From: Candidatus Oxydemutatoraceae bacterium
GTDB lineage: Bacteria; Pseudomonadota; Gammaproteobacteria; Poriferisulfidales; Oxydemutatoraceae
Reading direction: 5' to 3'
Assembly (NCBI GenBank): GCA_965219575.1
Contig: OZ244779.1
Span: 1,994,585-2,058,584, forward strand
DNA length: 64,000 nt
Positions within the stretch are counted from its first letter, which is position 1; each line of letters starts with the position of its first letter. The notes under the pieces were generated by a model that saw only the letters and a list, made by a program, of their open reading frames with translations, was not told where the DNA came from and searched no databases. A program made the translations under genes and the position numbers. Shown here in pieces: positions 8,449 to 9,831 of this stretch.

Positions 8449-9831
8449 CTATTGGAGGGGGCCTTCCAAAAAGACTTTACTGCGGATGTAGACAATTGCC
8501 CTCTCGGGTACAACCGATAAAGAAGCACTCCCGGGAGTGCCGACAATTACACGAAGGTTTCGTGTTGGGATAGACGAAACAAAAGTATTGCCGTCAATAC
8601 GCACAGTCAATCTAGAACTAGACCTACCAACGCCGTCGTCCATGGTGGGAATACTATAAGTAGCCGTCGTCTCGCCGGCCATGATCGTAATCATTCCTAC
8701 AACTTCGGTTGTTGACGTAACCGACGGAACATAGTCTCTGCCATCATCGTTTGTCTCAATAGCCTCAAGTGCCATTGTCAAGTCCGCGTCGAGCGACACG
8801 GAACGGAAGTTCGGGTCGTTAGGTGGTATAAATGGTAGCGTGCGTGTTATCGTAAATATCGCCGGATTACCTGCTATAACGGTTCTGGGCGCAGTGATAG
8901 TCACCCTTACATCATCGTCATCTCTGATAATAAGTTGTGCAAAAACCTCACGTGCTGGTTGAAGAGTATTATCAGCGAGTCTCTCTAGAGGATAATTACG
9001 TTCTATGATTATATTGAGTACTTCGTTGATTTCCAGTTCTGCATCGTGCATGACCGGAATTTCCACCACAAAACTCGTAGTACTCGGCGGAATAGTCGAA
9101 TCGGATACGGGAGTATAATTATCGTTAATATCCTCTGTTAATTTTACATAGCTAAACATCACCGTATCACTTGCCCGCAAACCAAAATTAGTAATTCTGT
9201 CGCTTGGATTAATTCCCCTGATTATAAGTTTTAGCTCAAAATTCTCGCTTTCGTCTACAACATAAATCCTTCTGTCAAATTCAATTATGTATTCATCTTC
9301 CCATACGGTCACCGTTAAGGTAGCGTTAGCAGGATCCGGAGTCGGTTCGGGAGAGATGTTACTACTCTCTATGCGATCAATGACGATTTGTGCCTCTCTA
9401 TCCCCGTCAAGCACATTGTCGTCACCAAATCTCCACTGCAAGGTCGCAGTTCGCGCACCGGCACCTACGAAGGTGACGGTGGTATTGAATACCGGCGGAT
9501 CATTCCCTTGCTGCATAATATCAAGCTCAGACAAACGCACACCGATATTGCGATTGTTACCCGGCACTATACTGACCTCTGTCCCTGATGTCGGCGCATT
9601 TATGATAGGCGCATACTTAAGCGATACGGCAAGCGTTTCGCCGGCTTCAAGGGAGCGATCTATCTCGACACGAAACCGTATTGTGCCACCCTCCCAAACC
9701 GTGGCATTGGGTTGCGCCAGTGAAATGCTAGCCGTCGGTGCCTGTGCAATGCCGGTATCGGCAAAGCAAAAGAGCAATAAAAACAAAACGGCATAACCCC
9801 ATGCACGCCGGCGATAATCGTATTGTTGCAT
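8449..9831 (-). CDS. Secreted hypothetical protein, paralog A; signal peptide and C-terminal ...IRSKVFLEGPLQ
   Basis: N-terminus MQQYDYRRRAWGYAVLFLLLFCFADTGIAQA. About 80 percent identical to ORF 10509..11918 at both termini. Confidence 0.7.
   Translation of the reverse strand: MQQYDYRRRAWGYAVLFLLLFCFADTGIAQAPTASISLAQPNATVWEGGTIRFRVEIDRSLEAGETLAVSLKYAPIINAPTSGTEVSIVPGNNRNIGVRLSELDIMQQGNDPPVFNTTVTFVGAGARTATLQWRFGDDNVLDGDREAQIVIDRIESSNISPEPTPDPANATLTVTVWEDEYIIEFDRRIYVVDESENFELKLIIRGINPSDRITNFGLRASDTVMFSYVKLTEDINDNYTPVSDSTIPPSTTSFVVEIPVMHDAELEINEVLNIIIERNYPLERLADNTLQPAREVFAQLIIRDDDDVRVTITAPRTVIAGNPAIFTITRTLPFIPPNDPNFRSVSLDADLTMALEAIETNDDGRDYVPSVTSTTEVVGMITIMAGETTATYSIPTMDDGVGRSSSRLTVRIDGNTFVSSIPTRNLRVIVGTPGSASLSVVPERAIVYIRSKVFLEGPLQ

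Follow-up and report, generated by a model that had tools for sequence, protein, structure and literature searches.

The 64 kb stretch of contig OZ244779.1 analysed here (the window) comes from a gammaproteobacterium and holds three genes for secreted proteins that end in nearly the same short peptide, a C-terminal tag that is the subject of this work. Two of the genes are tandem Calx-beta-like paralogues, named here A and B, and the third encodes a protein of GLUG repeats (Table 1). When the three open reading frames (ORFs) were translated, paralogue A was found to end in AIVYIRSKVFLEGPLQ, paralogue B in AIVFIRSKVFLEGPLQ and the GLUG protein in YTYIRVFLEGLLQTD, in each case directly before the stop codon. 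A six-frame translation of the whole window gave three matches of the FLEG type, each at the end of one of these ORFs, and this confirmed the common C-terminal motif claimed in a preliminary description of the locus. The same description had called the GLUG protein unrelated to the paralogues, and the Pfam comparison agreed: the former contained nine Glug repeats (PF07581; 3.5e-42), and paralogue B matched Calx-beta (PF03160; 1.1e-07, 32.3 bits against a cut-off of 27). Paralogue A, which is identical to the database homologue P0001, scored under the PF03160 threshold; its homologues P0005-P0013, P0016 and P0017 have this family among their precomputed annotations. The Sec signal peptides previously assigned to all three proteins were also recovered, since each N-terminus showed a basic region, a hydrophobic stretch and an A-x-A-like site; in paralogue A, the hydrophobic region reached a maximum Kyte-Doolittle value of 2.72 over 12 residues and was followed by an AQA site. 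Here and below, signal peptides were judged by a heuristic and not by a dedicated predictor.

Table 1. The three tagged genes of the window and their terminal signals.
Feature	Position	Strand	Basis
Paralogue A, secreted and tagged, 460 aa, all-beta, Calx-beta-like	8449..9831	-	ORF and AlphaFold model
Tag of paralogue A, YIRSKVFLEGPLQ, with TAG stop	8449..8490	-	Translation; stop codon plus 13 codons exactly
Sec signal peptide of paralogue A, MQQYDYRRRAWGYAVLFLLLFCFADTGIAQA	9739..9831	-	Heuristic
Paralogue B, tagged, 469 aa, Calx-beta; signal peptide at 11826-11918	10509..11918	-	ORF and Pfam
Tag of paralogue B, FIRSKVFLEGPLQ, with TAG stop	10509..10550	-	Translation
GLUG-repeat secreted protein, 549 aa, variant tag; signal peptide at 17450-17530	15881..17530	-	ORF and Pfam
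Variant tag of the GLUG protein, YIRVFLEGLLQTD, with TAA stop	15881..15922	-	Translation

The tag is 13-14 residues long and has the consensus [ILV]-R-[ILV]-R-x-K-V-F-L-E-G-P-L-Q, which in the small proteins takes the form [YFC]-I-R-S-KVFLEGPLQ; it thus consists of a strand of alternating hydrophobic and basic residues and an invariant end. The copy on the GLUG protein of the window is degenerate with respect to this consensus, as it is without the 'xK', has L in place of P and carries two added residues (TD). Other variants were found in P0012 (…KVLPEGLLRQ) and P0031 (…EGPLE), and the canonical tag is present on larger GLUG proteins of other Candidatus Porisulfidus genomes (L008, L024, L025, L026 and P0026). 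An AlphaFold model of paralogue A, computed with 21 sequences, was all-beta, with a mean predicted local distance difference test (pLDDT) score of 72.5. The final strand of its last domain spanned residues 435-441, and residues 448-460, which lie past this strand, had pLDDT values below 50; for this reason the tag is, in the model, an appended and unpacked tail rather than the last strand of the preceding domain.

Next, the distribution of the tag was analyzed. An unconstrained search with the whole of paralogue A returned 20 homologues, and 18 of these had the tag at the last residue, the remaining two being truncated fragments. Three other families of 324-410 residues (P0016-P0020), which are 26-33% identical to paralogue A, end in (L/I)(Y/C)IRSKVFLEGPLQ. 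In alignment A5, where the mean column identity is 46%, the last 12 residues contained five of the 10 invariant columns (I449, K452, V453, E456 and L459) and six of the 17 columns with near invariance, including R450, F454, L455, G457 and Q460. When a back-translated KVFLEGP(L/F)Q pattern was scanned against one genome per species for 185,579 species, 33 loci were found, and 25 of them fell within three metagenome-assembled genomes of Candidatus Porisulfidus, a known gammaproteobacterial sponge symbiont (11 in OZ241323.1, nine in OZ244052.1 and the rest in CBDAVG01). A stop codon followed the tag directly in 25/25 of the Porisulfidus loci and in 0/13 of the matches elsewhere, i.e., eight from genomes and five from the JGI metagenome scan. 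Those five consisted only of chance matches and of a Bacteroidales domain described below, and no terminal tag of the Porisulfidus type was found in that scan. When 1.84 billion representative proteins were searched by HMMER with a tag profile, 17 clusters were found at E ≤ 1e-3, and all the matches reached the last residue. A 40-residue alignment searched against a 5.8-billion-protein index, whose word index is unsuited to short tags, gave 23 candidates and one 30-residue fragment. The source genome of the window has at least five tagged genes, and counts per genome are lower bounds, drawn from pieces of genomes. Among the lineages searched, the tag is restricted to the genus Candidatus Porisulfidus and is strictly terminal; since 18 of the 20 homologues end in it and the stop codon follows the motif in every Porisulfidus locus and in none of the others, its position at the C-terminus is not due to chance.

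At least 10 unrelated protein classes stand upstream of the tag, and the carriers, which are adhesin-like, range from 150 to more than 2,900 residues. They include the Calx-beta paralogues, two further small Calx-beta-like families, proteins of 150-175 residues, cadherin-like beta-sandwich proteins (PF12733), GLUG/Big_2 giants of 2,000 to more than 2,900 residues, a class recognisable by the motifs 'YTDGQGY...VYTTRP', and several more. A signal-peptide-like start was present in all the N-terminally complete carriers (22/22), and the carriers without one were evident gene fragments. In P0026, a protein of 2,900 residues, the signal peptide is encoded just upstream in an adjacent frame (about 900-1090 of L041), which looks like an assembly frameshift.

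Some further observations concern these genes and their neighbours. Paralogue B, an intact ORF in the window, is split into two calls of 229 and 239 residues in a low-coverage ENA contig (L035, 7915-9323), and this split, like the frame shift in P0026, looks like an assembly frameshift in contigs of 3-6x coverage. The leader MxxNLxKYxLLxCLGLLxVQPVFAQ opens giant neighbour proteins, and the start of the window (1-2472, minus strand) encodes a giant GLUG protein with the signal peptide MKFKPAKSDSIPNKIGRFLYIVFLLALGGLQVVSAQ, of which the first 824 residues are present; this gene runs off the window and encodes at least 2,050 residues in L035. Short ORFs of 27-125 residues with a perfect tag end were also found (L009, 5308-5499; L032, 5835-5861; L034, 4066-4092; L001, 17150-17527). 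These look like remnants of pseudogenes or like 3' pieces of tagged genes that were duplicated recently, and some of them adjoin transposases.

At the DNA level, the similarity of the three 3' ends in the window breaks off at the stop codon. The tag copies of paralogues A and B differ from each other at synonymous positions (TTA/TTG, GGT/GGC and CAG/CAA), and the DNA 3' of the stop is unrelated. Over 30 tag copies, six codons were used for Leu, four for Pro, four for Val and three for Gly, and the stop codon was TAA in 16, TAG in 10 and TGA in four, again with unrelated DNA downstream. Because the synonymous sites vary freely and the sequence after the stop is not shared, selection acts on the protein sequence of the tag, rather than the likeness being the product of gene conversion or of a repeat.

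We then compared the tag with known C-terminal signals. The LPXTG/sortase, PEP-CTERM/exosortase and GlyGly-CTERM/rhombosortase systems resemble it in that a short signature at the extreme C-terminus is placed on many unrelated Sec-exported proteins, in many copies per genome and within restricted lineages. GlyGly-CTERM proteins are cargo of the type II secretion system (T2SS) that ends up attached to the surface in Gammaproteobacteria. However, in these three systems a membrane enzyme cleaves the signal, in which the motif is followed by a transmembrane helix and a basic tail, whereas the tagged proteins stop 0-2 residues past the motif and show neither hydrophobic helix nor basic tail. An LPXTG motif with a hydrophobic segment was absent from the carriers, and no sorting-signal family of NCBIfam, whose models recognise PEP-CTERM and GlyGly-CTERM signals, matched the three window proteins at E ≤ 1, nor was a transmembrane helix seen past the motif. 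The C-terminal domain (CTD) of the type IX secretion system (T9SS) is likewise a signal that acts after Sec on exported and often giant multi-immunoglobulin (Ig) adhesins, but it is a folded beta-sandwich of 70-100 residues, recognised by TIGR04183 and related models, from Bacteroidota with PorU/PorV; the gammaproteobacterial tag has 13-14 residues that are unfolded in the model. No NCBIfam or Pfam match to such a CTD was obtained, and the domain preceding the last, unpacked 13 residues is specific to each family. With the beta-signal of outer-membrane proteins (OMPs) the tag has in common an amphipathic C-terminal beta-strand read by an envelope machine; that signal, however, is a feature of beta-barrel proteins and has an aromatic residue, usually Phe, at its end, while the tag ends in Q (or in E or QTD) on soluble beta-sandwich carriers. 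Giant adhesins of the RTX/LapA type, which are exported by type I secretion systems (T1SS), are comparable for their Calx-beta, cadherin or Big repeats and for their C-terminal export information, but they have no Sec signal peptide, present in all 22 complete carriers, and their signal is a degenerate, uncleaved one of about 50-60 residues, in contrast to the short and nearly invariant tag. A looser analogy may be drawn with donor-strand exchange in chaperone-usher pili and in the type V pili of Bacteroidia, where a single terminal beta-strand completes the Ig-like fold of another subunit, although the tagged genes could not be linked to any pilin-like fold, usher or chaperone.

The tag therefore lies outside the LPXTG, PEP-CTERM, GlyGly-CTERM, T9SS CTD, OMP beta-signal and T1SS families; for LPXTG, PEP-CTERM and T9SS CTD this follows from the lack of a transmembrane helix and basic tail past the motif and of a folded CTD. 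It is potentially a new class of signal if a receptor is found. The preliminary description had seen in the motif a sorting or processing tag in the sense of LPXTG, PEP-CTERM or T9SS CTD on diverse Sec-exported proteins: the tag-like behaviour held, with at least 10 classes and a terminal position, and the kinship with those systems did not. Its further statement that the motif is not a recognised one was borne out, as library scans of the window proteins showed it to be covered by no NCBIfam or Pfam model and a literature search on the motif strings found no paper; a search on sponge-symbiont adhesins likewise found nothing relevant.

A related sequence was found within proteins of Bacteroidales, Calditrichia and Bacteroidetes, where h-x-h-KVFLEGPFQ opens a domain of about 210 residues. 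This domain accounted for 4/8 of the genome matches and 3/5 of the metagenome matches outside Porisulfidus (family examples are L002, L007, L023, L028, L036, L038 and L040, and P0035-P0154). In L040 the motif comes right after the signal peptide and hence forms the domain's first strand. At least 1,303 proteins, all annotated as 'hypothetical', belong to this family, for which there is no Pfam or NCBIfam model and whose first strand has the near-invariant consensus L-D-L-K-V-F-L-E-G-P-F-N. The motifs LEGP, VDW..E.R (VDWVLVELR) and HRNHL are invariant, and the domain also has a PW.Y.G.E motif and two dockerin-like Ca-binding loops. The AlphaFold model of the domain had a pLDDT of 94.8, and its best PDB matches were type II X-module-dockerin dyads of cellulosomal scaffoldins (Foldseek probability 0.96-1.0; template modelling score up to 0.63 on the target). 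The tag matches the first-strand pattern h-x-h-K-V-F-L-E-G-P-(F/Y) over 7-9 residues, with an identical KVFLEGP core, as seen when L023 (VRVRVKVFLEGPFQ) is set against L004 of Porisulfidus (VRVRVKVFLEGPLQ), and positions 2-15 of a hidden Markov model (HMM) of the domain align to the tagged C-termini. The likeness extends to context, for the domain follows Ig-like adhesin domains, and its fold matches the modules by which type II X-module-dockerins anchor cellulosomes to the cell surface. It differs in that the other 200 or so residues are absent from the tagged proteins, where a stop follows the motif in all 25 Porisulfidus copies, and in the residues that flank the core. From the sequence comparison, a common origin of the tag and the first strand of the domain appears more likely than coincidence, although with so few shared residues convergence is conceivable.

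Collectively, these data fit best with the tag being a lineage-specific C-terminal signal of Candidatus Porisulfidus for sorting, or for retention at the surface, that acts after Sec export, a proposal for which we judge the chances to be evenly balanced. We infer that one common partner reads the tag and that this leads to export or retention, not to degradation or cross-linking. According to this proposal, the carriers would be exported by Sec and lose the signal peptide, and their beta-sandwich adhesin domains would fold in the periplasm. The tag, with its amphipathic basic beta-strand (I-R-I-R-A-K) and invariant VFLEGPLQ end, would remain free as an unpacked tail to be bound by one shared partner, either through beta-strand augmentation or through binding of the C-terminal peptide. 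This partner would then pass the carrier to translocation across the outer membrane or keep it on the cell surface. Candidates would be a T2SS component (GspC bearing a PDZ domain, or the N-domains of the secretin), an outer-membrane anchor protein, or lipopolysaccharide (LPS), to which the strand of alternating basic and hydrophobic residues could bind instead. GspC often has a PDZ domain able to read a free C-terminus, and GlyGly-CTERM proteins are a precedent for T2SS cargo with a C-terminal surface-retention signal.

Several observations weigh against this proposal. No partner, protease or transpeptidase for the tag emerged from a neighbourhood analysis of about 35 loci, which showed no gene that independently recurs beside the tagged genes. 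Hence the dedicated export, attachment or protease step suggested in the preliminary description gained no support, as no protease, transpeptidase or export component for it came to light, and for the same reason a role in sorting, attachment or processing is one that we infer. Genes of the T2SS occur in the genus, but their adjacency to tagged genes amounts to two of about 33 loci as a raw count: gspK-L-M-N in L033, and a lipoprotein secretin with a GspE-type ATPase in L013. The GLUG variant has two residues past the Q and P0031 ends in E; should these two copies be functional, this speaks against a partner that strictly requires a ...PLQ-COOH end. Finally, the conservation among the genome-scan matches is partly by construction, because the pattern had KVFLEGP[L/F]Q fixed; the evidence independent of that pattern is given by the homologue search and by the position of the stop codon.

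The recurrent neighbours in the same loci were transposases, genes in orthologous synteny (an alpha/beta hydrolase and an HExxH-VWA protein) and scattered secretion genes. Upstream of tagged P0027 lies a type IV minor-pilin cluster, and this adjacency and those to T2SS genes are suggestive only. In two genomes, the gene for the HExxH-VWA protein, a secreted metalloprotease, directly follows tagged genes of the 'YTDGQGY...VYTTRP' class (L009, 5581-7998; L031, 3-2633; L033, 1877-2215), a placement that is probably a case of synteny between orthologues or paralogues and not of repeated independent association. In the window itself, the Pfam-annotated genes between 19 and 49 kb are housekeeping, TonB/ExbB, porin and FGE-sulfatase genes, and nothing among them was linked to the tag.

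Four other roles or origins were considered for the tag at the protein level. The first derives from the X-module-dockerin-like domain: the tag could be the detached first strand of such an anchor, a separate Porisulfidus protein would supply the domain minus this strand, and the adhesins would donate the missing strand to that one common anchor by donor-strand complementation. The identity of its K-V-F-L-E-G-P with a strand motif that is nearly invariant in at least 1,303 database proteins, and that was met in seven independent matches, points in this direction, as do the cell-surface anchoring modules recovered as the best PDB matches of the confidently modelled domain and the unpacked state of the tag in the monomer model. 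We nevertheless regard it as unlikely. The likeness spans only 7-9 residues, within which convergence of a beta-strand and turn is possible; after the P the tag reads L-Q-stop where the domain has F/Y-N, and the acidic residues upstream are replaced by Arg. Moreover, BLASTP and HMM searches of some 390 kb of Porisulfidus DNA did not detect the remainder of the domain, a weak test, given that this covers less than 5% of four genomes.

PDZ proteases recognise free and unpacked C-terminal peptides, and the tag, as modelled, would suit them. It could accordingly be a degron or processing signal for the regulated turnover or maturation of adhesins, read by a periplasmic PDZ protease of the Prc/Tsp, CtpA or DegP/DegQ type or by an intramembrane CPBP/Rce1-like protease. 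Tagged P0024 has a DegP-type Trypsin-PDZ-PDZ gene at a distance of 5 kb, and tagged P0020 a gene for an Rce1-like CPBP protease two genes away, but each adjacency was seen once and both stand in housekeeping contexts (tig-clpP and hsp20). Known Prc/Tsp degrons are apolar, e.g., ...LAA, and unlike ...EGPLQ, and it is hard to see why a reduced genome would place a constitutive degron on its largest and costliest proteins. We consider this reading quite improbable.

It is also conceivable that the tag is a relic, i.e., the stub of an X-module-dockerin-like module truncated after its first strand, with no sorting role and serving only to stabilise the last Ig-like domain. Such an origin would account for the sequence likeness, and the carriers are multi-Ig adhesins, the kind of protein that bears these modules in other phyla (L002, L007 and L023). 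However, a structural cap would be expected to co-vary with the domain it covers, and the tag is nearly invariant on unrelated last domains in at least 10 contexts; in the AlphaFold model, too, it is not packed against the last domain. It is implausible that more than 10 families were each truncated independently at one and the same residue, which implies that the stub spread as a unit and was selected for itself. A mere relic or cap is thus very doubtful.

Still less probable, to the point where we give it little credence, is a covalent role in which the terminal ...(P/L)LQ offers a glutamine to a bacterial or sponge transglutaminase, with the envelope or the host matrix as the site to which the adhesins would be fixed. 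The Q is invariant at the end, and the LLQTD of the GLUG variant resembles LLQG, an engineered Q-tag for microbial transglutaminase. Cross-linking leaves the invariance of KVFLEG and the basic amphipathic strand unexplained; P0031 ends in E, and the roughly 390 kb of Porisulfidus DNA around tagged genes showed no transglutaminase gene.

An artefact of the DNA, in which gene conversion or a repeat or mobile element supplied the last codons and the stop, was rejected as having next to no probability: a hairpin resembling repetitive extragenic palindromic (REP) sequences at 8399-8453 does overlap the stop and last codon of paralogue A, but the DNA past the stop of paralogue B and of the GLUG gene is unrelated, the 30 copies display the full synonymous range with all three stops and unrelated flanks, and the tag occurs in at least four genomes on at least 10 protein classes, which also disposes of the restriction to three genes through local conversion with the downstream repeat that had been raised earlier. 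As a separate observation, hairpin families resembling REP or miniature inverted-repeat transposable elements, with GCCG.TTG...CAA.CGGC cores, flank the tagged genes in both orientations (8399-8453, 10070-10124, 17560-17614 and 17666-17706), and longer intergenic repeats pair 10222-10313 with 17724-17815 and 9733-10032 with 11820-12119.

Returning to the sorting or retention signal, a broader version of this proposal may be put forward tentatively, and we think it more doubtful than the proposal itself. The tag would represent a new class of diderm sorting signal, of 14 residues and without a transmembrane segment, that donates a strand or a free C-terminus to one dedicated envelope receptor after Sec and so specifies the whole surface-adhesin repertoire, and its origin would lie in an anchoring domain that was reduced to the first strand. 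The receptor could be an X-module-dockerin-like anchor that lacks its own first strand, or a T2SS component. If the tag is truly a signal for sorting or retention, the C-terminal pattern [ILV]R.KVFLEGPLQ would list the complete surface and adhesin repertoire, otherwise 'hypothetical', of Candidatus Porisulfidus, an uncultured and widespread sponge symbiont. The post-Sec signals of diderms would also gain a structurally different kind, short, devoid of a transmembrane segment and apparently uncleaved, and the tag peptide could be used as bait for the receptor. That the tag resembles the opening strand of the Bacteroidales domain suggests a way in which such tags can evolve and flags a family of more than 1,300 members for annotation.

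The locus offers, in addition, a compact view of a host-interaction toolkit, since the tagged genes stand among genes for effector-like mimics of SH2 and SH3 ligands. Between paralogue B and the GLUG gene, the minus-strand ORF at 12273-13952 encodes a protein of 559 residues with tandem repeats of about 41 residues, no signal peptide and no Pfam family. It contains four YEEI motifs (the optimal Src-SH2 ligand when phosphorylated), three YEEV, four YVN (Grb2-type pYxN) and nine YxxM (PI3K p85-type), and by its sequence looks like a substrate mimic for host tyrosine kinases in the style of CagA, Tir or Tarp. The next ORF (14057-15823, minus strand), also between tagged genes, encodes a repeat protein of 588 residues with seven copies of a 21-residue unit containing YSTL (YxxL) and 12 PxxPxR motifs, four of them PPLPPR (class II SH3 ligands), and is a candidate for a second eukaryote-mimicking effector. 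In a related contig, a type III secretion system (T3SS) cluster with HpaP, YscO, the T3SS ATPase, a CesT chaperone, SctL and YscK (L045, 11581-19415) adjoins tagged P0024; the genus thus appears to have a T3SS, which could deliver the SH2/SH3-mimic proteins.

Two other observations were made in the window. Divergent from the GLUG gene, at 17975-20787 on the plus strand, are genes for a GtrB-like family-2 glycosyltransferase and a GtrA-like flippase (PF04138; 2.2e-24) and a membrane ORF of 516 residues without a Pfam match, which could form a module for the bactoprenol-linked glycosylation of LPS or of surface proteins. On the other side of the tagged genes, the prfB (RF2) ORF at 7181-8260 (minus strand) starts at a TTG right after lysS and has its 5' part in another frame, an arrangement consistent with the usual programmed +1 frameshift.

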